Origin: a virus
Taxonomy: Duplodnaviria; Caudoviricetes
Length of the DNA stretch: 59,373 nucleotides
IMG/VR virus record: IMGVR_UViG_3300043443_000423
Span: 1-59,373 of that record
Strand: one strand, 5' to 3'
The number at the start of each line of letters is the position of its first letter. The stretch's first letter is position 1. Shown here piece by piece: positions 6,978-57,175 of this stretch. Below the pieces are notes generated by a model. It did not search any database. It was not told the origin of the DNA and worked only from the letters and a program-made list of their open reading frames with translations. The position numbers were made by a program, and so were the translations under genes.

Positions 6978-7308
6978 GGGCTGGCTCCAGTTTGGTGGCG
7001 ATGTACTCGGCGAAGCGTCCCGCGCTGATCAGGTCTTGCATGCCGTTCCTGTCCAACCAGAATGAGACGTCGCCAGGGTGGGTTGCTGTTTGATGGTTCG
7101 ATGTGGTGCGGGAGTAGCGGTCCTTGTTGCCCACCCACTGGTTGACCTCGGTGTCGTAGATGTACATGGGGAAGTGCGGGCCGTAGCTGTACACGACGTA
7201 GAGGTTCTTGTTACGCCAACATGCTTGGATGGTTTGGGTGTTGGTCTCGAACTCTTGTCTGGCCTGTACCAGTGCACGCGCTTCGCGGTTGCTAACGTTC
7301 CTCAGCAT
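6970..7308 (-). CDS. Hypothetical phage protein (112 aa)
   Basis: GAGGAG RBS; YVVYSYGPHFPMY..YSRTTSNHQ. Confidence 0.75.
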   Translation of the reverse strand: MLRNVSNREARALVQARQEFETNTQTIQACWRNKNLYVVYSYGPHFPMYIYDTEVNQWVGNKDRYSRTTSNHQTATHPGDVSFWLDRNGMQDLISAGRFAEYIATKLEPAHA

Positions 7309-7711
7309 CTATGAGCTCCTCTGGTATGTCGATGTTGTCTCCAAGTTTCGATGCTACGTAGCAGCGCATAGCGGCGATTAGTGGGGTTGGGCCACGACCG
7401 GTTACATCATCTTTACTAGCCCACCATGCCGGCTTGTCCAACTGCACACACTCGCCTGTCTCATGGTCAAACAGCACGTCGGTTAGATCGAGCGTCAACT
7501 TCTCCCGCTCAATGATCGGCCCACCTTGCGCCCAGTCGGTTGAGTAACTTAGTTCCCACAAATCCATCACCCCGTACTCTTTTCTAGGGGGATAGATACC
7601 AAGTTGCGGCTCGTGTGGCCTACGTCCTGCAATTTTGTGCAAGCCTGTGTATCCCTCGCACTTTGCCACCGCCCAATCAAGGGCGGGTCCGGTTAGTTCT
7701 GCGGTGTTCAT
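7292..7711 (-). CDS. DUF2591/NinX-like phage protein
   Basis: ALDWAVAKCEG, YSTDWAQGGPIIERE, GPTPLIAAMRCYVASKLG. Confidence 0.8.
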   Translation of the reverse strand: MNTAELTGPALDWAVAKCEGYTGLHKIAGRRPHEPQLGIYPPRKEYGVMDLWELSYSTDWAQGGPIIEREKLTLDLTDVLFDHETGECVQLDKPAWWASKDDVTGRGPTPLIAAMRCYVASKLGDNIDIPEELIDAEER

Positions 7712-7932
7712 GCTTGTTCCTCCTCGATGTTGGCTGCTTGGATGATTTTCCACATGGCTACGATCTCGCGTGACGGGATGTCGTGTTTAGTGCGCAGATC
7801 GCCCACGACGTTCAGGATGTCTACGATGTCTCGGGCGTGGGCTTCTAGCATCCCGGTTGCGATGTTGCGTACAAACGTTGTGCTGTATATGGCGAAGGTG
7901 TTGCCGTCTGGCTCGACTCTGAACTTGTTCAT
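7708..7932 (-). CDS. Hypothetical protein (74 aa)
   Basis: ATGA overlaps at both ends. Confidence 0.65.
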   Translation of the reverse strand: MNKFRVEPDGNTFAIYSTTFVRNIATGMLEAHARDIVDILNVVGDLRTKHDIPSREIVAMWKIIQAANIEEEQA

Positions 7933-8123
7933 TGCCCATCCCTTAGTGCGACGACGCGGCCGCGGCGCGTTATGAGTGCTGACCCCCACGATGTGGGGTA
8001 GGCTGATGCCCATGCGAGGGACTCCGACCATGACCAGGCTTTGTGTTCGAAGATGTCCATCCCATCGGAGATGGAGATGCGGTAGGGCTTGAGGTGGTGG
8101 ATGAGTTTGCGTAATCGCTTCAT
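7929..8123 (-). CDS. Hypothetical protein (64 aa)
   Basis: ATGA overlaps at both ends. Confidence 0.65.
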   Translation of the reverse strand: MKRLRKLIHHLKPYRISISDGMDIFEHKAWSWSESLAWASAYPTSWGSALITRRGRVVALRDGQ

Positions 8124-8230
8124 AGGACCAGGACTCCCACGGTGAACATGATGACCAGGGAGATGGCGATCAACGCCATGCCGATACCGACCATGGTGTC
8201 GTAGGGAAAACTTTCGGGGTTGCGCTTCAT
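8120..8230 (-). CDS. Small single-pass membrane protein (36 aa, not in ORF track)
   Basis: MKRNPESFPYDTMVGIGMALIAISLVIMFTVGVLVL; GAGGA RBS; ATGA overlap. Confidence 0.6.
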   Translation of the reverse strand: MKRNPESFPYDTMVGIGMALIAISLVIMFTVGVLVL

Positions 8231-8233
8231 GGG

Positions 8234-8440
8234 TTAGGTCCTCTTAGGGTTTAGTTGATGCAGTAGCATCGGGTCAGAGATGTAGGTGGGTGTGGACTTG
8301 TTGATGGGCAGGCACATCGACGCCTTGCGTCTTAATTCCATCCTTGCGCTGGCCTCACCGCATGCGAGGCAGAGCTTGTACCCAAGGCGTTGGCGGGGTT
8401 GGGGGACGTCGTCCCCGCATCGGGGGCAGGGGTTATTCAT
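8234..8440 (-). CDS. DksA/TraR-like C4 zinc-finger protein
   Basis: CPRCGDDVPQPRQRLGYKLCLAC. Confidence 0.65.
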   Translation of the reverse strand: MNNPCPRCGDDVPQPRQRLGYKLCLACGEASARMELRRKASMCLPINKSTPTYISDPMLLHQLNPKRT

Positions 8441-8684
8441 CGAACTCGATACCCTCCAAGTCAACATCGGGAGTCGAGGGCTTCTTGTGGTTAGAGGTAC
8501 CATCCCTGACCACCCGCGTCTTATCCAAGTAGATCTGGAATAGTTGGGGACTGGTTTGTTTGGCGTGCGTTAGGAATAGTTTTCTTAGTAGCATCGTGGT
8601 GGGTATGAATTCCTGGGCCGCGAGGTCCGCGAGTAGGCGATGTTCAGCGACGGACAGCTTGAGATTGACGTTCTTGGTTTTCAT
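8433..8684 (-). CDS. Ribbon-helix-helix-like DNA-binding protein with acidic SSB-like tail
   Basis: MKTKNVNLKLSVAEHRLLADLAAQEFIPTTMLLRKL strand-helix-helix pattern; C-terminus DVDLEGIEFDE. Confidence 0.6.
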   Translation of the reverse strand: MKTKNVNLKLSVAEHRLLADLAAQEFIPTTMLLRKLFLTHAKQTSPQLFQIYLDKTRVVRDGTSNHKKPSTPDVDLEGIEFDE

Positions 8685-8699
8685 GTGTGTATATCCTGA

Positions 8700-9180
8700 T
8701 AGTGGTTAGGTGATGGTAAGTTGTGCATCACAATGGTATGTTAGCACATTATCAGGGGATTGAGCGGTTAGATCAGTGTTTGCGTGCGAAAGATAGTGTT
8801 GATGGTAAGACACTGGTAACGAAAATGGTATGATACTGGTTAGTTGTGCTATTGATGGATGCGGCAATTTGCCCAATATTTAAGCAAACTTGGGGTTTCG
8901 AGGGGGTGAAAAGGCGCTTGTCTAATTAGGCTGTCTAATTACCAAACGCTTGTAAGTGATTGATTTGATTGGGGAAATCGAGAGTCCACGGGGGCAATAA
9001 GACAATTAGGCAGAGTGGCGTAGGGTCAGACCTCCCCAGGGCCTCGCGTAGTCCATCATGGACGTGAAGCTCTCTATATAGTGACTCTTTTTACTGTCTA
9101 ATTGTCTAATTGTCTTATTACAACGAATAACTGAATGGAATCAAGCACTTAGTAATTAGACAGCTAATTAGACAGTCGGA
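8700..9180. promoter_or_regulatory. AT-rich non-coding region with iteron-like repeats and IHF-like sites (candidate replication origin)
   Basis: Nine TGTCTAAT-like copies in both orientations (8919, 8932, 8996, 9004, 9095, 9103, 9111, 9154, 9166); WATCAANNNNTTR matches at 8953-8965 (-) and 9139-9151 (+). Confidence 0.6.
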
Positions 9181-9217
9181 ATGTGTGTCTTAATATAACT
9201 ATGTATACACACGTGGG

Positions 9218-9415
9218 TTAATCGTGGGGTCGGCGGCGGGTGCCAGGGTAGCGAAAGCCGAAGGTTTGGGCGTGTTTGGAGATGGAGGACGCGGCGGAGG
9301 CGAAGCCCTGCGAGCGGTTCGATGGATGAGTGCTGCGCACGGCCATGAGGGTGGATAGGCGGGAAGGTTCGAAGGCGGGCATGGTGCCCTTGGCTACACG
9401 GTGGACGATGGGCAT
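9218..9415 (-). CDS. Hypothetical basic protein (65 aa)
   Basis: GGAG RBS before MPIVHRVAK. Confidence 0.5.
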   Translation of the reverse strand: MPIVHRVAKGTMPAFEPSRLSTLMAVRSTHPSNRSQGFASAASSISKHAQTFGFRYPGTRRRPHD

Positions 9416-9454
9416 GTAAGACTCCAAAGGGTGGGGGGATTAACCCCCCGCGGG

Positions 9455-9943
9455 TTAGACGGCTTGTTGGCGCTTGGCGATCTCGGCCGCGCAGAAGGCC
9501 TGGACACGCTCGATCAGGGTGATGCACTGCTCATACGACGTGCGCTTGGAGCCAGAGACGGTGACGCCGTCCTTCTTGCGTGTGGTGTACCCGCCATTCT
9601 TGAGGTCGGCGATACGGTCGCGATAACGGTCTGCAAGGCACTCGAAGGCCGAGCGGTTAGATATGGTCAAGGTCTCGCCGGTAAGGCTCGCCAGAGCCTC
9701 CGCAAGGGGCTTGTAGTTGCCACGCAGGGCAGACGACGCGATCATGCTCATGCCATCGGCTGCGAGCCCGAGACGGGCCTCCTTGCCGACCTTGCCCGAT
9801 GCGGCCGCAAGAAAACACTTGGTGGCGACGGATGCCTGAGCCACGACGGACAGCTTCTTCTCGACAATGGTCTTGCCATGCACGAGGACCGAGACAGGGC
9901 CGTATTCGATGACGTCGGACGCGTTAACGGTTTGCATTTCCAT
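9455..9943 (-). CDS. Hypothetical protein, first gene of leftward early unit (162 aa)
   Basis: AGGAG RBS before MEMQTV; codon usage like other genes. Confidence 0.75.
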   Translation of the reverse strand: MEMQTVNASDVIEYGPVSVLVHGKTIVEKKLSVVAQASVATKCFLAAASGKVGKEARLGLAADGMSMIASSALRGNYKPLAEALASLTGETLTISNRSAFECLADRYRDRIADLKNGGYTTRKKDGVTVSGSKRTSYEQCITLIERVQAFCAAEIAKRQQAV

Positions 9944-10004
9944 GGTTGAATCTCCTAGGGGTGAAAGGGTATGGATCGACACACTCGGGATGAATGTGCC
10001 CACT

Positions 10005-10350
10005 AATACCCCCGCAATGTCACTATGCTATGGCCCACCCGATGCGATCGGGAAGGTTTGCAGGGAGCCCATTGCGGGTTAATCCCGCGATCTTGCTGCT
10101 CTAGGCGATCACGCGCCATCAATACCCGATCTCGCACGGTATCAGCGGCCGCAGAATCCATTTTGGGTTTCTGTTCTCGAGCCCTCCATGACGCAGCATG
10201 GATAGGGGAGTCGGCTTTCCGAATTGTTAAAGATCAACGTATGGTGCGATCCGATATGCGACACATCCCGTAGGACGCCTCCAGCCCGTGGGCGAAGGGC
10301 ACACACCTTCACGACTGACCCGACGTATCGGATCCCACGGTCGGGGAACT
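10005..10350 (-). ncRNA. Candidate structured leader RNA with boxA-like element
   Basis: Consecutive inverted repeats; minus strand GATCTTTAACAA at 10224-10235 followed by hairpin TCGG-AAAG-CCGA. Confidence 0.45.
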
Positions 10351-10460
10351 TGCTAACCGCCCCCTTCCACCTTAGGGGATCTTGCTACCCCCCTGGGTCC
10401 AGGCCCCCCAGGCCCCCGCCCCCCTGCCTTACCAGTCGCTCTTACAGCGAAGCCAAAAAA

Positions 10461-10490
10461 TTGCCTATACGCATACACACCTGCTAACAT
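10461..10490 (+). promoter_or_regulatory. Putative promoter of late unit
   Basis: TTGCCT-18nt-TAACAT with TGn extension; contains the recurring TGCTAACAT motif. Confidence 0.45.
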
Positions 10491-10520
10491 AACGTCACTG
10501 CAACCCCTTATCTACTACCC

Positions 10521-10652
10521 ATGGACCACCTTCGACGCTTCCTGGACATCATGCTCATCGTCTTTCTATGGGCAGTGAGCACCGTAGTCATCGGTGCAGG
10601 CGCTCGGCTGATGCTCGAGTTGTTCTGTTTTGGCTACAGGTGTGGCCTGTGA
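10521..10652 (+). CDS. Small membrane protein (43 aa, not in ORF track)
   Basis: MDHLRRFLDIMLIVFLWAVSTVVIGAG; GTGA overlap with next gene. Confidence 0.5.
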   Translation: MDHLRRFLDIMLIVFLWAVSTVVIGAGARLMLELFCFGYRCGL

Positions 10653-10807
10653 AGCGTTGGAACCTGTTCATTCCCGACGATCTGATCGCCGAGGCCAAGG
10701 CGTTGGCCGACAAGAAGGGGGTATCGGTCGCAGAAGTCGTACGCATCGCGCTCACCAAGTACCTGGAAGCCGTCAGACGGGCCAAGGAAGCCAAACATGG
10801 AGCCTGA
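10649..10807 (+). CDS. Ribbon-helix-helix (CopG-like) regulator
   Basis: MKRWNLFIPDDLIAEAKALADKKGVSVAEVVRIAL. Confidence 0.75.
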   Translation: MKRWNLFIPDDLIAEAKALADKKGVSVAEVVRIALTKYLEAVRRAKEAKHGA

Positions 10808-11282
10808 AATCACCGATGACCCCCTCGATTGGGGGCAAAAACCCACCTCTTTCCCTCATATACCAGCCGAAATGGTCCATTCCATCGCGTTGGGGATGGA
10901 AGATGAGCTCGTAATCGCCTCCAGACATGGGTTTTCGGTCGAGCAGTACCAAGAAATCGCCCAACTGAAGCCTTTTCAGGCTGCGGTGGCCTCCCAGCGG
11001 GCGGAATTCGAGAAATCAGGGCTCACGTTCCGCCTAAAACAGGCGATGAAGGCCGACATCCTGGCCGATGAGGTGTTCGTAAAGCTCATGAGCAACGAAA
11101 CGACGCTGGTTCAGAAGCTCGAGGGCCTCAAATACTTCGCCAAGGTCGGTGGACTGGAGCCCAAGGAAGAAAAGGCCGCACCCATCTCCAATCTGCCCAC
11201 CATCGTCATCAACACCAACTCCATTTCGATGGAACCGTCCCGCACGATCGACATCCCCGCAAAGGTTCTGACCAGTGAGTAG
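10797..11282 (+). CDS. Terminase small subunit (putative)
   Basis: Size and position directly upstream of, and overlapping, the large terminase. Confidence 0.65.
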   Translation: MEPEITDDPLDWGQKPTSFPHIPAEMVHSIALGMEDELVIASRHGFSVEQYQEIAQLKPFQAAVASQRAEFEKSGLTFRLKQAMKADILADEVFVKLMSNETTLVQKLEGLKYFAKVGGLEPKEEKAAPISNLPTIVINTNSISMEPSRTIDIPAKVLTSE

Positions 11283-12744
11283 TTACACCCCAAGCGCCAC
11301 CCAAGGAAAGTTCATGGAGACCGAGGCCTACGTTAGGGTCTTGGCAGGTCCGGTGGGCGGTGGGAAATCGGTGACCTGTGTGCACGAACTGGTGCGACTC
11401 GCCTGTGGCCAGAAACCCAACGCCAAGGGGCTGCGAAAGACCCGTGCGGTCATCGTCCGTAACACGGCCGATCAGCTGGCGCTCACGACGCGTAAAACCG
11501 TCTTCGACTGGCTCCCGCCAGGCGAGATGGGCACCTGGCAGGCGGTGAACAAAACCTTCGTGCTCAAGGCTCGACTGCCGGACAACACCATCGTGGAGTC
11601 GGAGTGGCTCTTCATCGCGTTGGACACCCCGGATGACGTGCGTAAGGCGCTGTCGCTGGAGACCACCTTCTTGTGGGGTAACGAGGCTCGGGAACTGCAC
11701 CAGGACGTGGTAGATGGGCTCTTGGGGCGTCTGAACAGGTATCCGTCGATGAAGGACGGTGGACCCACCACGTCGTGTGCGCTCTTCGATACCAACATGC
11801 CCGACGAAGACACCTGGTGGCACGACAAGATGGAGAACCCGCCGTCTAACTGGTCCATTCACATCCAGCCGCCTGCGATCATCAAGCCGCAGCGTTACGT
11901 CGAGCTCTACGACGAAGAGCCCCCGGAGATCCTCGAGGACAAGGACGGTGGCGAGTGGGCGGTCAATCCAGGGTGCGACAACTACCAGCACCTGCCCAGG
12001 GTCTACTACCCCAACCTCATCCCAGGCAAGACCGAGGATTGGCTGCGGGTGTATCTGCGCTCCGAGTACGGGCGATCGCTCTCGGGGACACCGGTCTACG
12101 AGAAGACATTCACCTTCGACTTCCATGTGGCCAAGGAGCCGTTGAAATACGTGAGGGGCGAGACCTACCCCATCGTCATCGGCGTGGACTTCGGGCGTAC
12201 GCCCGCAGCGGTGTTCAAGCAGCGCGATCCGCGGGGCAGGGTGTTGACGCTGGGCGAGCTCACCTCGGACAACATGGGCATCGAGACTTTCATCAATACG
12301 AAACTCAACCCCTTCATTGCCAACCGCTTCCCAGGGGCGACGTTCGTGGTGGCACCGGACCCTGCGGGCTTCGCCAAACAACAACTCAACGAGATGAGCC
12401 TGGTCGATGTGTTGAAGCAAGCCGGGTTCAAGTGCGTCAAACCCCCGACAAACGACCCTGAGAGGCGCATACAGGCCGTTGAGAGGCTGCTGAACCAGCA
12501 GCTGGAGGGTAAGGCCATGTACCTCATCGATCCGGGCTGTGAGCAGCTTATACGGGGTTTCAGGTACGGCTACCGATACAAGATCAAGAAGAACGGCGAG
12601 CTCGAGGACAGGCCGGAGAAGAACAGCTTCAGTCACCCGCACGATGCCAACCAGTACGCCGATTCGGTGATCGACATGAACGTGCGAGGTGTCGCACTGA
12701 ACCAGGGACGACGGGAAGTTAAGAAAAAAGCATGGGTTGCTTGA
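11275..12744 (+). CDS. terL: Terminase large subunit
   Basis: GPVGGGKS Walker A, WGNEARE Walker B, DTNMP, nuclease IGVDFG and HPHDANQY. Confidence 0.93.
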   Translation: MSSYTPSATQGKFMETEAYVRVLAGPVGGGKSVTCVHELVRLACGQKPNAKGLRKTRAVIVRNTADQLALTTRKTVFDWLPPGEMGTWQAVNKTFVLKARLPDNTIVESEWLFIALDTPDDVRKALSLETTFLWGNEARELHQDVVDGLLGRLNRYPSMKDGGPTTSCALFDTNMPDEDTWWHDKMENPPSNWSIHIQPPAIIKPQRYVELYDEEPPEILEDKDGGEWAVNPGCDNYQHLPRVYYPNLIPGKTEDWLRVYLRSEYGRSLSGTPVYEKTFTFDFHVAKEPLKYVRGETYPIVIGVDFGRTPAAVFKQRDPRGRVLTLGELTSDNMGIETFINTKLNPFIANRFPGATFVVAPDPAGFAKQQLNEMSLVDVLKQAGFKCVKPPTNDPERRIQAVERLLNQQLEGKAMYLIDPGCEQLIRGFRYGYRYKIKKNGELEDRPEKNSFSHPHDANQYADSVIDMNVRGVALNQGRREVKKKAWVA

Positions 12745-16442: not shown

Positions 16443-17426
16443 ATGAGTACGATTACCCCCGCCGCAGCGTATGCCGTCACCGGCTCGTTTGCTACCAACC
16501 CGGCTTACTCCGGTACCTTCATTCCGGCCGTCTGGTCGTCCAAGCTGAACGTGAAGTTCTATGCGAACACCACGTTTGGTGATGTCTCCAATACCAACTG
16601 GGAAGGCGACATCAAGAACATGGGCGACAAGGTGATCATCAACAACATCCCCTCGATCACCATCAATACCTACACGGTCGGCCAGAGCCTGACCTATGAG
16701 GTGCCCACTCCTGACACGATCGAGTTGCAGATCGACAAGGGTTTCTACTTCGGTGTGAACGTGAGCGATGTGCTCGAGTATCAAGCTCAGCCCAACCTCA
16801 TGGACATGTTCACGACCGACGCAGCGAACCAGATGAAGATCAAGGTTGATCGTGACTGCTTCGTTAGCACGTTCTCTGGTGCTGCAGCTGCAAACGTCGG
16901 TGCGACCGCTGGTGCACTGTCTGCTGGTTTCAACCTCGGTACCGATGCTGCTCCGATCGACTATACCCAGGCTGGCAACGAGATCCTCAAGACCATCACC
17001 GCGATGTCTTCGGTCCTCGATGAGCAGAACGTCCCCGAGGGCGATCGTTTCCTCGTGATCACGCCTTACGAGCGTCAGTTGCTCATGCACTCGCCGCTTG
17101 CTCAGGCCTATGTGACGGGTGATGCCCAGTCGATCCTGCGTAACGGCAAGATCGGTCGTATCGATCGCTTCGACATCTATGTGTCGAACCTGCTTCCCGC
17201 TGCTGCCGCTGGTCAGAACTACACCGGTGGTGCTGCTGCAGGTACCGTGAAGCGTCACGTCATCATCGCTGGTCACCGCGCTGCAATGACTTTCGCCTCG
17301 CAGATCAACAAGGTCGAGAGCATCCCCAACCCCAACGACTTCGGCACCCTGGTGCGTGGTCTCATGATCTATGGTCGCAAGACGATCAAGCCTGAGGCCC
17401 TCACCTACGCAGTCGTCAAAGGTTGA
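16443..17426 (+). CDS. Major capsid protein
   Basis: FIPAVWSSKL, WEGDIKNMGDKVII, RFLVITP, VRGLMIYGRKTIKPEAL; followed by terminator. Confidence 0.88.
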   Translation: MSTITPAAAYAVTGSFATNPAYSGTFIPAVWSSKLNVKFYANTTFGDVSNTNWEGDIKNMGDKVIINNIPSITINTYTVGQSLTYEVPTPDTIELQIDKGFYFGVNVSDVLEYQAQPNLMDMFTTDAANQMKIKVDRDCFVSTFSGAAAANVGATAGALSAGFNLGTDAAPIDYTQAGNEILKTITAMSSVLDEQNVPEGDRFLVITPYERQLLMHSPLAQAYVTGDAQSILRNGKIGRIDRFDIYVSNLLPAAAAGQNYTGGAAAGTVKRHVIIAGHRAAMTFASQINKVESIPNPNDFGTLVRGLMIYGRKTIKPEALTYAVVKG

Positions 17427-17443
17427 ACGTGATGTAACAGGAC

Positions 17444-17465
17444 AGGGGGCTTAGGCCCCCTTCTT
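17444..17465 (+). terminator. Rho-independent terminator after capsid gene
   Basis: AGGGGGC-TTAG-GCCCCCT then TCTTGTGTT. Confidence 0.75.
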
Positions 17466-17507
17466 GTGTTAGTATGTGAGTAAGTCCTAACACCGCAAGG
17501 AACGCGC

Positions 17508-22835: not shown

Positions 22836-25800
22836 TGAGCGATCTCCTGCTTCCCGCGGTTCAGAAAGGGTCCGTTGCGACCGTTGATACCGATCCGTAC
22901 TACAACCTGGTCTCCCTGCATCTCAAAGGAGATGTGAATACGGGCCGGAACTACAACGCCTTCTCGGATGCGAGCTCGAACAACTTCAGGCTCACGAACA
23001 ACGGCGATGTGCGGGGCTCGAGCTTCAGTCCGTATGGGACCAGTTGGAGTAACTACTTCTCGGGTGTAAGCGACTTTCTTAGCTACAGCACGATCACGCT
23101 CGGTGCAAGTTTCACAATTGAGTTCTTCGTTTACTTCCCGACGACGCCAAGCGCAAACGCGGTAATCATCAGCAATATCGGAGCGGGTGGCACCAACTGG
23201 GTTGGCGTAAGCAATACCGCAATATCGTTGTCCTATAGCGCCGGTACAAGAACCTTTGCGTTCACCCCAGCGGGCGGCACTTGGTACTACGTCCAACTCA
23301 TCAACTCGGCATCGTCGCTTACTTGCTATGTCAATGGTACGCAGGTCGGTACGGCTCAGACAGGCCCCAGCAGTTTCACACTAGACCGCGTTGGCGGTTA
23401 TACGAACGTCGGGTTCACTGGCTACCTCTCCAGCGTTCGAGTCAATTCCACTGCATTGGCGGTCTCTGCCCTTCCAACATCGCCGTTGACCGAAGTAGCA
23501 AACACGGTCCTTTTGACCTGCCAGTCGAATCGACTACTCGATAACAGAGCGAGCCCCTTGACGCTCACAAAGGGCGGATCCCTATCCGTCTCCTCCTTCT
23601 CCCCATTCCTCGAGACCGACACCACGACAGGGTCGGGGTACTTTGATGGGAACGCGGACTACCTTGACGTAACGAGCGCCTTGTTCAATCCAGCCGGTGC
23701 TTTTACTGTCGAGTTTTGGTTTTACGGCACTGATAGCGCAACATCTACCCAAGGTCTAATTTCTACTTGGGCTAGTGGTCTTAGTCCTGCGCAGGGGATT
23801 CTTATATGGAAAACTGGCGCAAATTGTGAGATCCAAATTGGTAATGCTTCTACTGGCGGCACAACAATCGCCACGTTTACATGGGCAACATATCTAAATC
23901 AGTGGAACCATTTTGCGCTTGTTAGGAACAGCAGCAATAGTTGTACTGTCTTTCTTAACGGTATTCGGCTTGCTGCCCCAGTTACTAAATCAGGCTCGCC
24001 TGGCCAGACCGCACTAACGATTGGCAGAGCGTTTCCAAATAGCGCAAGTTCGTATTTCGCAGGTTACATGTCTAATGTTAGCTTTGTTAGCGGTTCGTCG
24101 CTTTACGATCCTGCCTTAACGACCATACCTGTACCTACGCTACCGATCACCAAGGTAACAGACACAGCCCTCCTCACCCTCCAAGAACGCGGTGCCTACA
24201 ACACCATCGGGTTCCAGGACGAAAGCGAGTATCAGCACCTCATCACGCGCAACGGTAACGTCGCTCAGGGCACGTTCTCACCTTTCAGCAATGCTGGGTG
24301 GGCGGTCAGCTTCGGTGGCGGTGCATCGAATATCAACCTCGCAAGTAGCGCAGACTTCGCCCTTGGAGGTGCGTTTTCATTTGAATGTTGGGTATATCAA
24401 ACGAGCATACCCAACTTCGTGGACCTGCTAGATGTGCGAACCAGTAACGAAGTCGGTTCGCTCGGCATATCCGCAACCGGATTTCCGCGTTGGCAGAACG
24501 GTCCGACCACAGGATCGCTAATCACTGGGTCCACGGCGCTAACGCTCAATCAGTGGAACTATCTCCTTTTTGTTGCGGATGCTAGCGGCTGCTCGATTTA
24601 CCTGAACGGTCAGCGTATCGCCAACACGGCTCAAGTTGCTACTTGGCCGTCCTCCGCAAGACCGTGCTTTATTGGCGGTAGCTTTGGCAACGCATCCGGT
24701 GGCTCGCTGAGTGGGTTCATTGCGGACGCAAGGTTAATCAAGGGATCGACTCCGTACAGCAGCACAGCCACCAGCGTAACCGTACCAACAGCTTTGCTTC
24801 CGTTCGTCACAAATACCGTATTGCAGTGCTGCAGAACAAATCGTTTCGCAAATACGGTGAACAGCGCTTCGATGACGGCCAACGGGACAACTTCTGTCGC
24901 CCCCTTCTCCCCCTTCAAGCCCGTAGCGTATGACCCTGCTGTGCATGGCGGGTCGGGTTACTTTGATGGGACAACTGACAACCTGGCCGTCGTCTCGCCA
25001 CAGTTCACGCTTGGCACAGATAACCTAACGGCTGAATGCTGGTTCTATCCGACAGCAGCAGGAAATTCCTCAACTATCCTGGCTTGCAAGATTAGTGCTG
25101 GAGCGGGTTTTTATCTTATATGGTCAAGCACAAGCGCATTTAGAGTGCTAGTTAATGCTGGAGCGGTTTGGAGCGTAGACGCATCTAGTGCTGCGCTCAA
25201 TCTAAATACCTGGAACCACCTTGTAATGACGAGGGACGGCTCTACGATTCGAACTTTCTTGAACGGCGTGCTTGCTACCGTTACGACCGGGATCACGGGC
25301 TCCATGGGGGCTACAGCACCGATCGTCCGAATCGGGTCCGATGACGCTGGAAGCGGAGTGGTGAACGCCTCCTACATCACAGGCGTCAGGATCGTAAAAG
25401 GTGTGGTCTATCCGACTTCGCTTACCACGACAGGAACCCAGGTCTTTACGCCTCCCAACGCGCCTGCGCCGGTAATCAACAACACGCTTTTCCTGCTGAA
25501 CTTTACCAACGGCGGGGTCATCGACTCCACTGGCAAGAACGTGATCGAGACCGTTGGCAACGCTGGTGTGGTCACAACGACCATTAAGAAGTTTGGCTCG
25601 GGATCCATGTTCTTTGACGGGACTGGGGACTACGACGTAATCCCGCTGAACAAGCAGATGGATTTCAGTTCGAGTGGTTCGATCACCATCGAGTTCTGGA
25701 TGTACGGGGAGAACACAAGTCGCGCTTTTGTCATCGGAAGCAACGCGTTCAGCGGCTCCACCAGCAATTATTCAGCCGGGATCATGTTTGACTGGACTCC

Positions 25801-28635: not shown

Positions 28636-30524
28636 CGACGATCGCACTGAAGAACTTCTCTGGAGAGATCCCCAACCTGCCGCCGTACCTGCTGCCGGAC
28701 ACCAACGCTCAGCAAGCGATCTACTGCGACTTCGCGCAGAAGGACCTGCGCCCCTTAAAGAACGGCACCCAGATCGCCACGATGTCGAACAACATCAAGG
28801 GCATCTACACCGAGGATGGCATCAACTTCCTCACCTGGCCGACCGAGACCTACGCGTACAAATCCCCGGTGATCGGCGACACGTTCAGCCGTGTCTACTT
28901 CATGAACGCCAGTGGGTACTACGTGACCACGGTCAACCAGGCCGACAACAATGGCGGCGAACCCGCGAACTCATGGCTGGTGGGCGTCCCCACCCCCACT
29001 ACTGCACCGACCGCATCGACCGTCGAGCTCACGACACTGCGTGGATACCCCTCGGCCACCGTCACTGTTCGCGCTTGGTACGAAGCAGGGGGCTCGAGAT
29101 ACGACGAAGCACAGGTGACTGCAGCCACCGTCACCGCCTTCAAGAAGTACACCTTCACGCCTCCCACGCGCAGTGGGAACACCCCGGCATCGGCCACGCT
29201 CTATGCGAGCTTCACGATCACCGACTCGGGCAAGCAGGTGCTCTCGGTCAGTATCCCCGCGGGGACCATCAACTCGGTGCGCTCGCAAGCCCTGCCCGGT
29301 GGGATCGAATTCACGCTGACCGCCGCAGGCGAGATCACGTTGCAGTGGGGTGTCTACGAAACACGGGCCTACGTCTTCACGGTGACCAACACCTTCAACG
29401 AAGAATCTGCACCGAGCCCTGCCGCAGTGATCGACGTGACCTACATGCAGAAGGTAACACTGGGTGCAACACTTCCGAGCTTCACGGGCTACCGCCCGAT
29501 GCAGGGGGTGTCCTTCTATCGCACCTTCGGTACCAGTGCGGCCTACTCGAAGATCAACGTCACCGACCTGGGTAGCAACAGCTACTCCGATGAGTCTTAC
29601 CAAGCCTCGGACATCAAGGGCACGTTGTTGAGTGCTGACTGGGAGCCCCCGGTCACCGGGATGTTCGGACTGACGCTGCTGCCCAACGGCGTGTTCGCAG
29701 CCTTCAAGGGCAACGTGCTCTATATGAGCGAGCCCTACCGGCCCCACAGCTGGCCGTACAAGATGAGTTTCCCCCAGGCGGTCAGAGGCATCTGCCCTGG
29801 CGCTCAGTCGCTGGTCGTGACCACCGCCGAAGGGTGCTACAACGTGCTGGGCAACAGCCCCAAGAACATGGCGCAGCAGCGCTTGCCGCTGCCGCAGGCC
29901 GGAGTCACCCACCGCTCGATGGCACTGATCGATGGTGCCGTGGGGTTCGCATCCAACGACGGGATCGTGGTGGTCAATGGCTCGCAGGCCACGATGGAGT
30001 TGAGCCAGAAGTTCTTCTCCCGAGACGACTGGCGTGGGCGTTATGCGAACGTGCTGGACACCCTACGCTTTGCTTATCACGACGGTTTCCTGGTCGGGAC
30101 CTCTCCCGCAGGCGTGGGGTTCTTGGTGCGGCTCGATGAAGCTGCGGGAACATTTACTCAATTCAGTGAGCAGATCGATGCGGCCTTCTACCTTCCAGTT
30201 CTTGACACGCTTTACTACGCAAAGGGCGCGACGCTCTACCGCTTTCGCACTGGCACCAACTACACCTTCGACTGGTGGAGCAAGGAGTTCATCCTCCCCA
30301 GTTACGTCGCCCTCGGGGCAGGCTACATTCGGTGCACTGGACCCGTCACGCTCACGCTCTATGCAGAAGGCGCACAGTGGCACCAGGTCACACTGAGTAA
30401 CTCGGGGTACTTCCGACTGCCCTCGGGCATCCGTGCACGTCGTTGGTCGATCAGGTTGCAGTCATCCGCCTCGCTGCAGGAGTTGACCCTGGCCACCGCG
30501 ATGGGGGAGTTAGGAAGTGTCTGA
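28632..30524 (+). CDS. Tail nozzle/stabilization protein (beta-propeller-like)
   Basis: NFSGEIP N-terminus, LYMSEPYRPHSWP, FDWWSKEF. Confidence 0.65.
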   Translation: MTTIALKNFSGEIPNLPPYLLPDTNAQQAIYCDFAQKDLRPLKNGTQIATMSNNIKGIYTEDGINFLTWPTETYAYKSPVIGDTFSRVYFMNASGYYVTTVNQADNNGGEPANSWLVGVPTPTTAPTASTVELTTLRGYPSATVTVRAWYEAGGSRYDEAQVTAATVTAFKKYTFTPPTRSGNTPASATLYASFTITDSGKQVLSVSIPAGTINSVRSQALPGGIEFTLTAAGEITLQWGVYETRAYVFTVTNTFNEESAPSPAAVIDVTYMQKVTLGATLPSFTGYRPMQGVSFYRTFGTSAAYSKINVTDLGSNSYSDESYQASDIKGTLLSADWEPPVTGMFGLTLLPNGVFAAFKGNVLYMSEPYRPHSWPYKMSFPQAVRGICPGAQSLVVTTAEGCYNVLGNSPKNMAQQRLPLPQAGVTHRSMALIDGAVGFASNDGIVVVNGSQATMELSQKFFSRDDWRGRYANVLDTLRFAYHDGFLVGTSPAGVGFLVRLDEAAGTFTQFSEQIDAAFYLPVLDTLYYAKGATLYRFRTGTNYTFDWWSKEFILPSYVALGAGYIRCTGPVTLTLYAEGAQWHQVTLSNSGYFRLPSGIRARRWSIRLQSSASLQELTLATAMGELGSV

Positions 30525-36073: not shown

Positions 36074-36331
36074 ATGACTTTAGATGTCGGTGCATTTGCA
36101 GTAAAAGTAAATGGTGAGTTGGTCGGTGGACGTGTCATCGGTTTGTATGGTGGCAAGAAGGTGTTCCTAACGACAGTTGGTGATGATGGCCAACCGTTCC
36201 TGACCGCAGAGGGTCTGGATCTGGACAACACCATCGTCTCGGCTTCGGATGTAGAAGCCCCCGCGCCCAAGAAGGGGCGCAAGAAAGTCGAGGACACGGT
36301 GTCCGTCGATGACGTGCAGATCGAGGTTTAA
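36074..36331 (+). CDS. Hypothetical protein (85 aa)
   Basis: GGAG RBS, co-oriented. Confidence 0.65.
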   Translation: MTLDVGAFAVKVNGELVGGRVIGLYGGKKVFLTTVGDDGQPFLTAEGLDLDNTIVSASDVEAPAPKKGRKKVEDTVSVDDVQIEV

Positions 36332-36341
36332 GGAGTAAGCC

Positions 36342-37541
36342 ATGAATTTCTTGGGTGCTTTGGGTGCGGCTGGTAGCGGTATCAGTGCGGGCATCCAAGA
36401 TCTTGAACGGCAAGAAGAGCAGAAGTTCCTCAAGCAACAACGTGCCCGCATGCTCAAGCAGCAGGCCGACGACGATGCGATCCAAGAGGGGCTCAAGGGT
36501 ATCCGCGCACCGGGCAAATACACCGAGCGGGTGGACGACACCCCGGAGTACGGCACTGCAAGCACGGCCACCACACGCGAAGTCGATTACACCCCGCAGC
36601 AACGGGCTCGCGACATCCAGGCGCTCTATCAGCGTTATGGACGTGTGAAGGACGCCGACCAGTATGGACAGATGGCAGACGCCATCGAAGACCGCACTCG
36701 CCGCCTATCGCGTGAAGACATCCAGGACCGGGCCGCACGGCTCAGTGAGATCTCGCGCAACGCTGCGTTCATGTACAACACCGGCAACCTCGAAGGTGCG
36801 ATGCGCCTGCTGCAGGGTGGGTATGACCTCTTTCCTGATGGTCGCCGCGTGGTGGTCGAGAACGGGCAGTGGGGTGTTGCAGGTCCATCGGGCAAGTACG
36901 AAGTTGCACCCCAGCCGTTGACCAAGGAGTCGGTTGGCCAGGCGGTCAACATGGCCATGAAGTTCGGCAACCCTGCGTTGTGGGCTCAGTTCGAACAGGT
37001 CCGCCAGGGCGACGACAGGGTTGGTATTGCTCGCGAAGCCAACGTACTCAAGGGCAAAGAGATCGACAACATCGGCAAATACTACAGCGACAAGATCTCG
37101 CTCGATCGCGAAGAGCTCAATGCGAAGACCAAGGCAGGGTTCTTCAATCCACGCAGCCACCAGCCTGCAGAGCGCTTCAATCCGATCGGCCTGTCCGATG
37201 ACGGTAGGCGCGTGCTTGGCATCAACGGTGGGCGGTTGGTCGAGCAGCCGGTTCCAGAGGGCTACTCAGGGATGTTCCCCAAGACAACGGGCATTCGTCC
37301 ACAGCAAACGAAGCCTCCCAAGCCCATCGGCATGAACGAGGTTCAGAAGTTTGTGGAGACGTTCGGACATCAACCTGCATCGGGTTATCCACCCGATCGC
37401 AAGACAGGCAAGACACCTCGAATTGCAGATCTGCCGTTCGAAGACATCGTCAGGATCATCGAGGCCCGAAGTGCCGTCGGTGGCGTTTCAGCAGGACTGC
37501 CTCTACCCGAAGGTGGGCTCGGTAAACCTCCAGGGAGGTAA
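36342..37541 (+). CDS. Internal virion/ejection protein
   Basis: MNFLGALGAAGSGISAG amphipathic start then coiled coil. Confidence 0.65.
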   Translation: MNFLGALGAAGSGISAGIQDLERQEEQKFLKQQRARMLKQQADDDAIQEGLKGIRAPGKYTERVDDTPEYGTASTATTREVDYTPQQRARDIQALYQRYGRVKDADQYGQMADAIEDRTRRLSREDIQDRAARLSEISRNAAFMYNTGNLEGAMRLLQGGYDLFPDGRRVVVENGQWGVAGPSGKYEVAPQPLTKESVGQAVNMAMKFGNPALWAQFEQVRQGDDRVGIAREANVLKGKEIDNIGKYYSDKISLDREELNAKTKAGFFNPRSHQPAERFNPIGLSDDGRRVLGINGGRLVEQPVPEGYSGMFPKTTGIRPQQTKPPKPIGMNEVQKFVETFGHQPASGYPPDRKTGKTPRIADLPFEDIVRIIEARSAVGGVSAGLPLPEGGLGKPPGR

Positions 37542-37544: not shown

Positions 37545-40500
37545 ATGATTCGGACGCTCCAAGACCTACGCAAGTTCGCAGGTCCCGATTGGAAAGATGT
37601 CAGTGATGAAGACCTGGTCACCGCGTATGCGAAGAAGGTCAACATCGATCCCGCCGAAGTCGGTATTCAACTCGGTATGTATGCGGGTGATGGGGGCAAG
37701 AACTCCAAGCGCCTGTCGTCGTCCATCGACAGCTACCAGGCCAACCTCTACGGTCTTGGAGAGGCGATTGCTGAGAAGGCTGGGTTCACCGGTGTTCAGG
37801 AGGCCATGGGTCGGCGTCGTCGCGCCAACGAGTTCGAAGCAGCCGTGCAGTCCCAACGCGCCAAGGAGATGGGCGCAGTCGATCGGTTCGCAGATGTCAA
37901 CAGTGCTTCGGACTTCGGGGACTACGCAGTCGGTCTAGGTATCCAGTCGCTTCCCTATCTGGGTGAGGCGCTCGGCGGCGGCGTGATCGGCCGTGGCGTG
38001 ATGATGGGTACCAAGGCAGCGTTAAGAGGTGCCGAAGCTGCGGGTGATGTTGCAGCCGCTAACCGTGCAAGAACCGCTCTCAATCGTGGTGCCACTGCAG
38101 GTGCAGTCGGTGCGTCTTACCCATCGGCCGTGGGCGATGTCCTGAGCAGTCAGCGGGATCAAGCAGACACGATGGACCTGGGCAGCGCAGCTGCACTCGG
38201 TATTCCCTACGCAGCACTCAACGCGTTTGGCCTCGAAGGGGCGCTGGCCCGTCGTTCGGGTTTCCGCTCGGGTATCGAAGCGCTGGACAACATCTCCGGC
38301 ATCAAGGGTGGACTCGCCCGCATGGGTGCAACAGGTCTTCGCACGGGCCTCACGGAAGCCGTCACCGAGACTGCACAGGAAGGTCTGAATCAAGTCGGCC
38401 GCATGCAGGTCGATCCCAACGAGACGTTCTTCAACGAGCGCTCCGCGGAACGCTTTCTCGAGTCGGCCATCGGCGGTGGGTTGCTCGGGGGTATTGGTGG
38501 TGCAGGGCTGGGCGGATGGCGTCGCTCCAAGCCGGTGGATCTTCTGGGAACCGCTAACCCCACGCCGCCCACGCAAGAAGAGATCGCTGCAGAACAAACA
38601 GCGGCAGCGCAAGCACAAACTGCTTCGGAGATTACTCAGTCACCGGCTCGAGTATCCAACGTCTTCTCGGAGCAGCAGCAACGCCTGATCGACATGGGGG
38701 TTCGCCCCACCAAGAAGGCCATGGATCTCCTCGAAGAGATCGATGCGAGCGGGCTTGCGCCCGAGCAGCTGACCGGTGTCACCACCGCGATGGCCCAGAA
38801 CAAATACAAGCGCGCGGCTACCTTGCTCGCCGACGCGATCATCGAAGCCAAGAAGAATCCTCAACCCGCAGCTGCTGCGCCCACTGCGCCAGTTGCACCT
38901 ACGCCCGCGCCTACCGATGTCAATCAAGCCCCTCAAGCCGTCCAAGCTCAAGAAGAAAAACCGAAAGTTCGAAGAGTCACAGCTGCAGAAGCAGCTGCCC
39001 AGCAGGCCGCAATTCAACCCCCTGCCGAAGTCCTTGGTGACCCCGCAGGAGCCGCCCCCGAAGCGCCCGTCGTAACGACGCCGCCTGCAGAACCTGTCGT
39101 CCAGCGCAAACAGAAACGGGTGGTCACTCCGACCGCTCCGGCCCAAGCGTTCGTCGCAGAAGAACCGGCTGAACAAACTGAGCCAGTTGTGGAAACACCA
39201 CAGGCCGCTGCACCCTTAGCTGAACAAGATCTCGCAGATATTGCAGAGGCCACCGGGCAAGGTGCGTTGGCACAAGCCCAGCAGGAAGAGGAAGCCGGAG
39301 CCCGTCAGGACGCCCCCGACGTTGACCCCAAGGAAGCCGCTAACCAGATTTTCCAAGTGGCGTTCCAAGGCTCGGCTAACCCGCAGCGCGACGCAGAGAT
39401 CGCGCAGGCCTACGTCACCTCGATGGCCAATGCACCCAAGGGGTCCAAGGCGAAGATCGCTGAGGCGATCGGTGCGAAGTACGGCATCGGTCCCAAGATG
39501 GTGGCCAAGCTCGGCAACACGACCAACCTGGTCGCTGCCGGAGAAAAGCTCGGCTACACGCCTCAGCAGGTGCGCGAAATCCTCGGCGTGGGCAACAACA
39601 CCAAGTCCGCCCCCAAGGCAGAACTGACGCCTGAGCAAGCCGACCGCCAGGAAGCCATGCAAGACCAAGCCGATCGTGCTGCGAAGTCGCAGGCGCTCGA
39701 GGCCGCGGGCATTTCCTCGGAGGAGGGTGAAACCTCCGGTCTGGGTGGTGACGACAAGTCGGAGACCTGGAAGCAGGGTGGTAAGGGCGCAGGCGACACC
39801 GCCAACGCCAAGGATGAGGCCATCGCCAACGAAGTCCAGTCGCTGCTAGAGAAACAAGACGAACTGCGCCAGACCGCTGAAGAACTGCGTGATCAAGGTC
39901 AGGACGAAGCTGCAGAGGCCATCGAAGCACAGATCAACTCGCTGGAAGGCAAAGTCGCCTCGGCGATGAAAAAGTACGAAACTTTCCTCCAGAGCAAAAA
40001 GAAGAAAAAAGCCAAGGCCAGCGAATCGGCCACGTCCGTCGAGCGTGCAGGCGAAGCCTGGGACAACGCGATCCAAGACATCGATGGAGCCCCACCCTGG
40101 GACAGCCTGACCGATGCGCAGCAGCAAGCCTTTGCAGACTTTGGTGAGGGCAATTGGAAGCTGAGCGACATCGCGTCGTTCGTGGATCGTCTCGATCGGG
40201 GCTTGGCCAAGAAAGGTAAGAAGGTTGCACCCAAGTCCTTCAAGGAACGCGAACTGGCCATGCTCCGCGGTGCGGAACTGGCTGAGCAACAACTGCGTGC
40301 CATCGGTATCGACAGGCCTGCTGACTTCGTCAGCGAGTACGAGTTCTATGAAGACTTCGATCCTGATGAGGTCGAGGGCGAGATCGTCCCGGATGGGCAG
40401 GGCGGTTATCTAATTCGTGTGAACCTGGCCAAGGTGTCCTCGGCAGCGGGTACAGCCCTTGTGATGACGCACGAAGTTGGCCACGCAGTGGACATGGGCC

Positions 40501-43994: not shown

Positions 43995-44180
43995 TAGGTA
44001 CGAATTTGGTACACAATTGCTGAAAAACAACGCTATCGGTGTACCATGCACTGCGCTGTAAGTGATTGAATTTACATCAGAATCTAACGCAGTGTTGTAA
44101 AAATGGTGCTGATGAGATGGGGGCAGGATTCCAGGATTCATGCGGGTTTCCTGGCGTTCAGTTACAGCATTGGTACAGAA
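43995..44180. other. Putative attP with tRNA 3'-end core
   Basis: 44104-44116 reverse complement CTCATCAGCACCA (tRNA-Thr-like end); TGGTACA arm-like repeats at 44007, 44040, 44171; IHF-like site 44059-44071. Confidence 0.65.
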
Positions 44181-44187
44181 TGCCCCC

Positions 44188-48737: not shown

Positions 48738-49703
48738 TCAGTCGTCAAAGTCGATGCCTTCCAGGTCCACATCCAGGTCTTCCACCGGCGTGGGCTTGGG
48801 TTTGGCTTTCTCCGCTTTGGGCGCGGCTTTCTCGGCGGCTGCAACGGCCGTCTCGACTTCGTCGGTGGTCACGGTCTTGGACTTGGAGGCGGTCTTCGCC
48901 TTGGTCACTGCGGTCTCTGCAGCCTCGGCAGCTGCGGTGGACTCGTTAACGTCGGCTTGCGCCACGGCATCGATGGCGGTGTTCAGGCTTCCACCCGTGA
49001 TGTCGCGAACGGTGTCGCTGTCCATCATCTCGCGCACTTGCTCGAACGACGCGTCATCCAGGATACCCACGGGCTTGAAGGTGAGCTTGGGGCTCTCGGC
49101 CTCCATGTCGAACCCGATGCGGGTGAGCACCATGTTGTACGCCACGCCTCGTTTGGCCAGCATCTGACCGTACTCGCCCAGGCCGCGGATGGACGCCGGA
49201 GGCACACGAAGCAGCATCGGATCGTTGATCTGTCCACCCGGTGCGATCGCAAGACGCACGGTGTCCGAGCAGGCCTTGCCCTTGGAGGTGCCCTTGTCGG
49301 TGATCCTCGAGCCCCACTGGTTGTGAGGGCAGGTGGCGCACTTCTTGGACTGCGGGGTCTTGGCGTCTGCCGCGGGCTCCACGCCGGTCGTGGAGTAGCA
49401 GTCGGGCTTTTGTTTCTCCGAGCTCTCCGGGTCGTAGCCCTTGAGGTAGAACACCTTGGAGGTGCCCTTGTTCGCCTTGATGATCACAGCTTCGATGGCG
49501 GTCGCCGCGCTGTCGGGATCCTTGGGGTTGGTGAGGACCTTGCGCTCACCATCGCGCACCACTGCGAACACCTTGCCCTTGATGGACATGACCGGGAAAC
49601 CACCACCTGCGTGCGCAGTGAGATCCGCGTTAAGTGCTGCAACATCAACTTGTTTGAGATACGCGGGCAGCTTGCTACCGCCTTCGAACGGAATGATATT
49701 CAT
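48738..49703 (-). CDS. Single-stranded DNA-binding protein (putative)
   Basis: PDCYS..CATCPHNQWGS..KAC..LLRVPPAS; Ala/Lys linker; acidic-aromatic tail; in replication module. Confidence 0.7.
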   Translation of the reverse strand: MNIIPFEGGSKLPAYLKQVDVAALNADLTAHAGGGFPVMSIKGKVFAVVRDGERKVLTNPKDPDSAATAIEAVIIKANKGTSKVFYLKGYDPESSEKQKPDCYSTTGVEPAADAKTPQSKKCATCPHNQWGSRITDKGTSKGKACSDTVRLAIAPGGQINDPMLLRVPPASIRGLGEYGQMLAKRGVAYNMVLTRIGFDMEAESPKLTFKPVGILDDASFEQVREMMDSDTVRDITGGSLNTAIDAVAQADVNESTAAAEAAETAVTKAKTASKSKTVTTDEVETAVAAAEKAAPKAEKAKPKPTPVEDLDVDLEGIDFDD

Positions 49704-50174: not shown

Positions 50175-50374
50175 GCCGTACCATAATTTACACCATAAGC
50201 TGCTAACACGCCCATGGTACCAATCGCCGCGAGGAAGTCCTGCAGGTCCTCGAGGTCCTCGAAACGCATGATGAACGTATGTGTACCGCTATCGACTTCC
50301 AGCTGCAGGTGACCCTCCTTGTTCATGAACACGTTGATGGAGAGATCGGGCTCGGCTGCTTGTTCTTTACTCAT
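50171..50374 (-). CDS. Hypothetical protein (67 aa)
   Basis: Coupled to helicase stop. Confidence 0.6.
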   Translation of the reverse strand: MSKEQAAEPDLSINVFMNKEGHLQLEVDSGTHTFIMRFEDLEDLQDFLAAIGTMGVLAAYGVNYGTA

Positions 50375-51938: not shown

Positions 51939-51943
51939 GCGCG

Positions 51944-57063: not shown

Positions 57064-57175
57064 TGGATTTGTGCTCCGGTTTTCCTGTAAGGGGGTCAAG
57101 GCCGAAGTGCAGCATGAGCTTGGATAACCTAGTCTCGATGCGTACAAGTCGGCGGGTGATGTCATCTTCATTCAT
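56972..57175 (-). CDS. Hypothetical protein
   Basis: ATGA overlap; long 3' overlap with DUF3310 gene. Confidence 0.5.
   Translation of the reverse strand: MNEDDITRRLVRIETRLSKLMLHFGLDPLTGKPEHKSNESRRDSSGRDPLQGHGSTTLDGHGERPYP

Follow-up and report, generated by a model that had tools for sequence, protein, structure and literature searches.

Why should a small phage protein that appears to be built for binding double-stranded DNA end in almost the same eleven residues as the SSB candidate of that phage (SSB, a protein that binds single-stranded DNA)? The question is raised by two genes of IMG/VR record IMGVR_UViG_3300043443_000423, one complete viral record of 59,373 bases, apparently circularly permuted, that was analyzed in full and is called the window in what follows. 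The phage comes from freshwater and is judged to be temperate by its integrase; one of its relatives is classed as a provirus. The first gene encodes an 83-residue protein with a ribbon-helix-helix (RHH) domain and the second a 321-residue SSB candidate, and an earlier note on this DNA had drawn attention to the likeness of their C-terminal tails. As judged from the sequences, the link between this RHH family and SSB-like tips is recurrent, with independent tips in several relatives, and the 83-residue protein is its most extreme form, an RHH domain joined almost directly to a tip that matches the one of its own SSB. The explanation that we prefer, with a probability of roughly 0.45, is that the protein works on DNA as a regulator or adaptor, accessory in nature, and has its partner in common with the SSB tail. 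The features on which the argument turns are as follows.

8433..8684, minus strand: gene of the 83-residue RHH-plus-tail protein, an ORF with an ATG start (stop codon at 8433-8435)
8550..8684, minus strand: RHH domain, residues 1-45 (strand, helix 12-24, helix 29-44), with an extra helix 46-56 after it
8436..8468, minus strand: tail of the RHH protein, D73-E83, DVDLEGIEFDE, ending the disordered stretch 59-83
48738..49703, minus strand: gene of the 321-residue gp32/phiC31-gp3-like SSB candidate
48741..48773, minus strand: tail of the SSB candidate, D311-D321, DVDLEGIDFDD

A tail shared by two proteins

Both open reading frames (ORFs) are confirmed, and their tails are identical at 9 of 11 residues, with D/E swaps at the other two. 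Six of the nine identical residues are written with different codons, and the nucleotide identity of the pair is 25/33. Seven of the eight nucleotide differences fall at third codon positions and the last at a synonymous first position of a Leu codon, a placement with P = 3.6e-5 if the differences were scattered randomly over the 33 sites. In 200,000 neutral simulations with 8 substitutions only 0.15% of the outcomes retained at least 9 of 11 residues, and in none was the remainder limited to D/E swaps. The same codon is used at three of the nine identical residues, to be compared with 4.28 expected from the codon usage of the genome, and this level resembles that obtained when the SSB tail is compared with those of SSB orthologues of other phages (2-6 of 7-10). 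A recent duplication of the tail at the DNA level is ruled out by the codon differences and the simulations, and the claim of the earlier note that the match is kept at the level of protein is borne out by these simulations and by differences that are silent or of the D/E type only.

A chance match, or an ORF that is not coding, can be ruled out as well, from a motif scan, the background of BLOSUM62 scores, the homologues and the ranking by a tail profile. In a six-frame scan of the genome the tail motif occurs in these two ORFs only. The ungapped BLOSUM62 score of the pair is 51 (self score 59), and when the cognate SSB tail is run against 16 related genomes the best non-self scores are 18-32, none of them C-terminal. 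Among 50 records this genome alone gives two matches to the DNA pattern [hydrophobic]xFD[DE]-stop. The RHH tail is also closer to its own SSB tail (9/11) than to the tails of 13 other SSBs, for which the identity does not exceed 8/11; the nucleotide identities are 20-24/33 for these 13 orthologues vs 25/33 for the SSB of the same phage.

For the ranking, a position matrix was constructed from 14 distinct SSB tails, leaving out that of this genome, and applied to the C-termini, at offsets 0-6, of 9,168 non-SSB ORFs from 17 genomes. The RHH protein of the window comes first, with a score of 22.1, and the RHH homologue of genome G009 second, with 14.5. Homologues from the databases score 14.2 (P0018), 9.3 (P0014) and 8.2 (P0013), values attained by only 2, 9 and 10 ORFs, respectively, out of the 9,168.

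These homologues are few. An exhaustive phmmer search of 1.84 billion representatives returned 4 matches, namely the protein itself, two very long proteins that we take as spurious and one true homologue, and a profile search provided 22 further RHH-family proteins. The part that is shared comprises the first ~45 residues, 37-41% identical in the better rows, and most of the relatives have an extra domain of ~110 residues. The C-termini read ..AELGMSFDE in P0013, ..DELGHLFDE in P0014, ..AELGITFDDDANQE (ELGITFDD..) in P0018 and ..DLQDLDFPED in P0005, which is the G009 gene. An SSB-like tip is found in 5 of the 22 database homologues, corresponding to 4 lineages since P0025 is a fragment of P0005, and the clusters of P0013 and P0014 have 6 further members, every one of which retains the tip as ..SFDD, ..SFDE or ..LFDE, with the last residue alternating between D and E. 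Because it is recurrent at the level of the family, the link between RHH domain and SSB tip is raised above a single coincidence. A pair of RHH tip and SSB tip could be obtained from G000 and G009 only, and the contigs of P0013, P0014 and P0018 (at most 5,995 bases) are too short for an SSB gene. G009 encodes two tandem RHH paralogues of 167 and 117 residues (L064 1504-2361, which corresponds to G009 56500-57357), and the SSB-like tip is present in the first alone.

Of 50 related viral records only 3, this one counted, contain a member of the family, as do 3 of the 17 genomes that were analyzed completely, whereas none occurs in 8 metagenome-assembled genomes (MAGs) with the SSB family. Searches for more homologues gave only G009 and G036 among viral contigs, none among genome contigs and two distant partial matches among metagenome contigs; GenBank phages gave no match by megablast of 7000-12000 or by tblastn of the RHH protein.

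The similarity of the two stretches of tail DNA is limited to the eleven codons, the stop codon and five further bases (32/41 nucleotides, score 37 vs a maximum of 24 for shuffles), an extent that suggests common descent of the segment. It could then be argued that there is no shared partner and that the tail is either left over from a recombination that involved the 3' end of an SSB gene or imitates DNA by its acidity and folds back onto the DNA-binding surface of the protein to which it belongs, and acidic SSB tails have indeed been reported to bind DNA-binding clefts (PMC11551737; of this and the other papers cited below a part of the text was available). Such an explanation has to contend with the silent-only pattern of differences, with independent SSB-like tips on family members of different architecture and with a conserved G-hydrophobic-x-F-D-[DE] that is more specific than a generic acidic stretch. 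Because of the substitution pattern and the recurrence an inert remnant is disfavored, and we consider a tail devoid of a common partner to be unlikely.

The tail profile also brought up, third as a group with a score of 11.6, conserved small membrane proteins of ~65 residues with a hydrophobic N-terminus that end in ..KDDGYFFEE(S/I)K. This family looks unrelated, a folded hairpin, and was set aside; no homologue was found in the genome of the window. Its members are located at

G012 23486-23683: KDDGYFFEE family
G015 56401-56598: KDDGYFFEE family
G007 16932-17126: KDDGYFFEE family
G011 30303-30500: KDDGYFFEE family

The RHH protein, the SSB candidate and the distance between their genes

That the 83-residue protein is RHH-like, as had been proposed, is supported by its AF2 model and by the structural neighbors of the model in VIA. 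The model consists of an extended N-terminus, helices 12-24 and 29-44, a third helix (46-56) and a disordered stretch 59-83; the predicted local distance difference test (pLDDT) is 82-96 for residues 1-40 and below 50 for residues 59-75 and 77-80. In a wide VIA search RHH proteins account for most rows and for almost every one of the top 36. The RHH domain of PutA gives a Z score of 6.3 and a root-mean-square deviation (rmsd) of 1.0 for 44/44 aligned residues, the modest Z being expected for a 45-residue domain, and TacA, AmrZ, CopA, Arc, NikR, omega, MazE and ParG are further neighbors. Foldseek likewise returned CopG, PutA, Arc and ParG, but at E>0.3. Among 16 aligned homologues that were compared with Pfam four match HicB (best E 2.5e-5), four a NikA-like and one a FitA-like RHH family; a profile search of the PDB gave MazE7 at E 0.039, and the ESM Atlas neighbors of the protein, which we use as a lead only, point to RHH too. 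Proteins of this fold class bind double-stranded DNA as dimers.

The start codon of the gene is preceded by AGGA at a distance of 9 nucleotides and the protein is recorded identically in 2 contigs. Contigs of four DNA runs were compared with the window. Those of freshwater run X3, from another sample and another study, are at least 99% identical over 8446-8648, 8679-8957 and 8995-9161, a likeness that is uninformative on selection, and runs X4 and X6 contain sequence that is 95-99% identical for about 9175-9545 only. The 83-residue protein is real, and it is an accessory early protein.

The description of the 321-residue protein as a putative SSB proved plausible, in that its model has an OB (oligonucleotide/oligosaccharide-binding) fold of the gp32/phiC31-gp3 type and its tail is the conserved tip of a family. 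An alignment of 25 relatives consists of a conserved core of ~240 residues, a variable K/A/P/E-rich linker and a conserved tip. C102, C122, C125 and C145, candidate zinc ligands, are invariant in the 25 sequences, as are D320 and D321, with F319 nearly so. The model has a mean pLDDT of 68, with values of 87-94 for the core strands and less than 50 for the linker. Its best match in VIA is the phiC31 recombination directionality factor (RDF) gp3, 9teh_I (Z 7.4, 149 residues aligned, rmsd 4.8), followed by gp32, 8gme_B (Z 5.5), RB69 gp32, 2atq_B (Z 5.1), and, lower down, many OB-fold binders of single-stranded DNA. Foldseek against the PDB gave no match at E<=0.001, a profile search of the PDB nothing meaningful, Pfam no family at E<=0.1 and PHROG only matches of unknown function. 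PF00436 and PF10991 did not match elsewhere in the genome, the PF10991 search being one without a positive control. On the basis of fold, architecture and gene position, SSB is the best reading of this protein and a credible one.

The family includes 61 IMG/VR loci, and FDD lies within the last 5 residues in 55 of its 57 complete IMG/VR members. Relatives in 21 GenBank phage records are all hypothetical or unannotated, none of 32 structural neighbors in BFVD has a functional name, and comparable tips are found in distant relatives from cultured phages (..FAGWDD in Pseudomonas phage Rollin and ..ELDDMLNNLLPA in Rhizobium phage RHph_TM3_14A). The tip is conserved at the terminus of the family, which is what a docking peptide would lead one to expect.

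The genes of the window, for which ~74 proteins are predicted, form two blocks, with leftward genes extending from ~10.2 kb through the ends of the record to 45.4 kb and rightward genes from 10.2 to 45.2 kb. In the leftward block small early genes are followed by a family-A DNA polymerase (PolA, 54072-56039), an exonuclease, a helicase, the 321-residue protein and a 1005-residue primase-helicase (DUF927); the RHH gene is its second clear gene, after an ORF of 182 residues. The rightward block comprises terminase, portal, capsid, tail and a DarB-like giant protein, with the integrase at its end. The giant protein (2064 residues, 37545-43739) lies at the end of the structural block and matches a DarB-like antirestriction PHROG (phrog_10089, E 8.9e-65). 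Around the SSB candidate and at the end of the rightward block are

50367-51983: helicase, beside the SSB candidate
45393-48410: primase-helicase, on the other side of the SSB candidate
44140-45213: integrase of PHROG integrase family phrog_1

Since the genome is apparently circularly permuted and both genes belong to the leftward block, the RHH gene is located ~18 kb upstream of the SSB gene, around the circle, and not 40 kb away as the earlier note had counted.

An early position of this sort, in the second gene of an operon and upstream of the SSB gene in the same block, together with a peptide near-identical to the SSB tip, is what might be anticipated if the RHH protein were a competitor or decoy that blocks the docking site of the SSB tail on a protein of phage or host, thereby timing replication or diverting a host factor, possibly a defense sensor, by which the phage SSB is recognized. 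A soluble decoy, however, needs no sequence-specific DNA-binding domain and is disfavored because such a domain is present. Regulators are, in addition, usually far scarcer than SSB. In favor of the proposal, phage SSBs are described as defense triggers, with escape mutations in the tail region, in the available part of a preprint (bioRxiv 10.64898/2026.10.21.760695). On balance we doubt that the protein acts as a decoy.

Repeats, the next gene and the role of the tail

Upstream of the RHH gene lie two sets of repeats, and downstream a short gene that overlaps it:

8703..8843: direct repeats (C/T)T(A/T)ACCA, candidate RHH operator, directly upstream of the RHH start
8919..9174: cluster of 9 TGTCTAATT-type repeats in both orientations, 235 bp from the RHH gene
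8234..8440, minus strand: gene of a 68-residue putative zinc-ribbon protein, the ATG of which overlaps the last two RHH codons and the stop codon (ATGAATAA)

Next to the gene, (C/T)T(A/T)ACCA is present in 4 copies in 176 nucleotides vs 0.034 expected from its genome-wide count (~100-fold enriched). The ACCA cores form three pairs with a spacing of 11 bp and WACCA occurs 7 times vs 0.30 expected; the repeats constitute families D2, D6 and D9. A different element, the palindrome AGTGTGTTCAAAACACACT, lies upstream of the RHH homologues in G036 and G009, and we infer that these elements, which fit RHH operators, are where the respective proteins would bind. A scan of 8200-10900 for sigma-70 promoters and terminators yielded nothing usable, with 4 promoter-like sites vs 1.7 expected.

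The more distant cluster holds 9 of the 13 matches to TGTCTAATT (at most 1 mismatch) that the genome contains, the chance expectation being 4.84 genome-wide. Its 8-mer (TGTCTAAT) is clustered also in G001, G002, G006, G010 and G016, all of which are without an RHH homologue, and other repeats are found at the equivalent place in further relatives, TTGGATAATT in G011 and G012 and CTCAAGACAG in G036. This non-coding stretch, rich in repeats and placed after the first of the early genes, is located at

8919-9174: window
36251-36588: G002
17126-17473: G006
24212-24303: G010
11679-11966: G001

Such a stretch, a conserved feature of the phage group but with a word that differs by lineage, suggests a binding protein that co-evolves with it. 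Because it is present in relatives that have no RHH gene, the TGTCTAATT cluster is a feature of the phage group that is independent of the RHH protein.

These data bear directly on the role that had been suggested for the protein, namely that it binds the adjacent iteron-like repeats and recruits the primase-helicase or PolA to the origin by means of its tail. There is something to be said for this idea: the gene is close to the nine repeats, dimers bound there in an array would expose numerous tails of the SSB type on duplex DNA and SSB tails are known as recruiters (PMC11551737, PMC12593628). The same cluster is present, however, in at least five relatives without the protein, and the co-occurrence of protein and iterons across relatives that is expected of an iteron-binding initiator was not found. 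The cluster is, moreover, only a putative origin, and it is a different repeat that adjoins the start of the gene. With the family in only 3 of 50 related records, the RHH protein cannot be an essential initiator, and with none in the 8 MAGs that have the SSB family, the distribution disfavors an essential recruiter at the origin as well. We do not take the protein to be what binds the TGTCTAATT cluster, and the role in origin recruitment that the earlier note had favored is not upheld; we regard it as improbable.

The overlap with the next gene raises a further alternative, in which the RHH protein and its disordered C-terminus neutralize the translationally coupled zinc-ribbon product in the manner of an antitoxin. 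The closest structures do include the RHH antitoxins TacA, MazE, ParD, VapB and FitA, and the stop and start codons overlap. A homologue of the zinc-ribbon protein is found in G029, however, which has no RHH gene, so that the adjacent and recognizable toxin that always accompanies the antitoxin in type II systems is not seen here. Nor does the 68-residue protein match a toxin family; its Pfam matches are weak zinc-ribbon models, with E values of 0.012-0.075 that are all under the cut-off (PADLOC and toxin libraries were not searched). The identity with the SSB tip would be left unexplained in addition, and an antitoxin-like pair is thus very unlikely. The codons for L-E-G of the tail (TTGGAGGGT) hold a GGAGG 12 nucleotides before the zinc-ribbon ATG (8433-8470), and the DNA that encodes the tail may, to go by this motif, serve also as the ribosome-binding site of the zinc-ribbon gene.

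We return, then, to the accessory regulator or adaptor. The 83-residue protein probably links a site-specific DNA binder to the network of replication proteins, and we infer that its tail would occupy the same site on a partner as does the SSB tail. Dimers would sit on the paired (C/T)T(A/T)ACCA repeats that immediately precede the gene encoding them and, from this duplex DNA, would offer tails of the SSB type to a partner, candidates for which are the family-A polymerase, the helicase, the primase-helicase or the DNA-binding cleft of the SSB itself. The protein could then function as a regulator or adaptor that responds to its partner, much as RHH antitoxins sense theirs via a disordered C-terminus, and would tie the control of the early operon to the replication proteins. 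Predicted complexes of PolA, the only partner considered in this manner, with residues 46-83 of the RHH protein gave scores of 0.00, 0.47 and 0.00 relative to a mark of 0.32, a result that counts neither way.

Several observations weigh against this reading. The tail could be a recent graft from the SSB gene of another phage, in which case the silent differences would reflect the divergence of SSB genes and not selection on the RHH protein; no donor is present among the 13 orthologue SSB tails compared. The last RHH codons are also constrained by the overlapping start codon and the GGAGG ahead of the next gene. The earlier note had held that homologues lacking the tail would count against its proposal, and in addition to the five homologues with an SSB-like tip there are 17 of 22 that score <8 and have none, including G036 (..ASKPAIPE) and a group of 146-residue proteins (..FREFQDGEV). 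This precise fusion is known from a single case: when IMG/VR was scanned for DL[DE]GIxFD[DE]-stop, the search yielded 46 loci, 45 from the SSB family and one unrelated ORF, and no second RHH protein. The unrelated ORF, L187, encodes 106 residues ending in ..YYPDLDGIFFDE, on an IMG/VR contig of 101,483 bases, and is the sole non-SSB match of the pattern. The 83-residue protein itself matches no family in Pfam (E<=0.1) or PHROG, the candidate operator is proposed from the enrichment of repeats only, and binding of the tail and the choice of partner are drawn from sequence and model.

A bolder formulation is that this RHH family, which would bind duplex DNA at specific sequences and display the docking peptide of the phage SSB, constitutes a minimal 'SSB-tail adaptor', making a chosen double-stranded site resemble SSB-coated DNA to helicase, primase or polymerase. 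We think it somewhat far-fetched at present, yet if true such an adaptor would be portable, composed of two parts and capable of nucleating or steering replication (or recombination) where a defined site lies, and it would have evolved repeatedly, with the tip being attached to different bodies. Enzymes of replication, repair and recombination find single-stranded DNA mainly via the hubs that SSB tails provide. A site-specific binder of double-stranded DNA with the tag of its own phage SSB would, if this is correct, amount to a simple natural link from a DNA address to the SSB hub, or to a way of sensing or blocking that hub. It would provide, too, a handle on an SSB family that is widespread in phages but unannotated.

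Comparison with known systems

The architecture of an N-terminal RHH domain followed by a flexible C-terminal peptide is shared with the RHH regulators (TacA, AtaR, ParD and MazE; omega, CopG and Arc), and with omega also a candidate operator made of direct repeats (title of PDB entry 2bnw). In contrast to these regulators there is no evident toxin partner here, and the C-terminal peptide copies a tag of a replication protein. No RHH protein with an SSB tail was found in the open-access papers that were searched. The C-terminal tag of bacterial SSB (SSB-Ct, ...DDDIPF) is likewise a short acidic-hydrophobic docking tag that follows a disordered linker, but the motif in the present case, G-I-x-F-D-D, comes from the SSB family of the phage itself and is not IPF, and its carrier has a sequence-specific DNA-binding fold.

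The closest structural relative of the SSB candidate is phiC31 gp3. A relative of gp3, the RDF of TG1, binds single-stranded DNA in vitro and has a zinc OB fold that resembles the one of gp32, and the acidic disordered tail of TG1 integrase has been proposed to bind the phage SSB/RDF by mimicking single-stranded DNA (PMC11795197). In the available part of that paper, however, TG1 SSB uses an N-terminal peptide for the predicted contacts, and the acidic tail of the integrase is no copy of an SSB tip. Unlike phiC31 gp3 and TG1 gp25, the SSB candidate of the window coexists with an integrase of phrog_1, and a serine integrase with an RDF is not indicated. It may be noted that in this phage, which has an integrase, the best solved match of the SSB candidate is an RDF, and that a relative of this RDF, TG1 gp25, has moonlighting activity as an SSB.

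T4 gp32 (PDB 8gme) resembles the SSB candidate in being a zinc OB-fold SSB with a disordered acidic C-terminus and a short amphipathic acidic docking peptide, and the model of the window protein matches gp32 structures with Z scores of 5.1-5.5, although no likeness is detectable by Pfam or by a PDB profile search. The C-terminal peptide of gp32 docks as a helix on Dda helicase and its acidic end may fold back on the cleft for single-stranded DNA (PMC11551737). A second T4 protein with the gp32 peptide was not found in the open-access papers that were searched.

The nearest parallel to two proteins of one phage having similar acidic, aromatic-bearing tails is found in T7, where the carriers are the SSB, gp2.5, and the helicase-primase, gp4. 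The gp2.5 tail is said to use the same polymerase as the gp4 tail, and the two are reportedly interchangeable. Acidic tails of gp4 dock on basic patches of the polymerase gp5 (PMC12593628). The T7 carriers are, however, both core parts of the replisome, whereas the second carrier here is a small RHH binder of double-stranded DNA from the early region that is found in few relatives; in T7 the aromatic residue is a C-terminal Phe, whereas the present tip ends in F-D-[DE], and the SSB belongs to another fold family. Sharing of tails between replisome proteins is already known from T7; what is new in the present case, as read from the sequences, is a set of rare RHH relatives several of which end independently in SSB-like tips.

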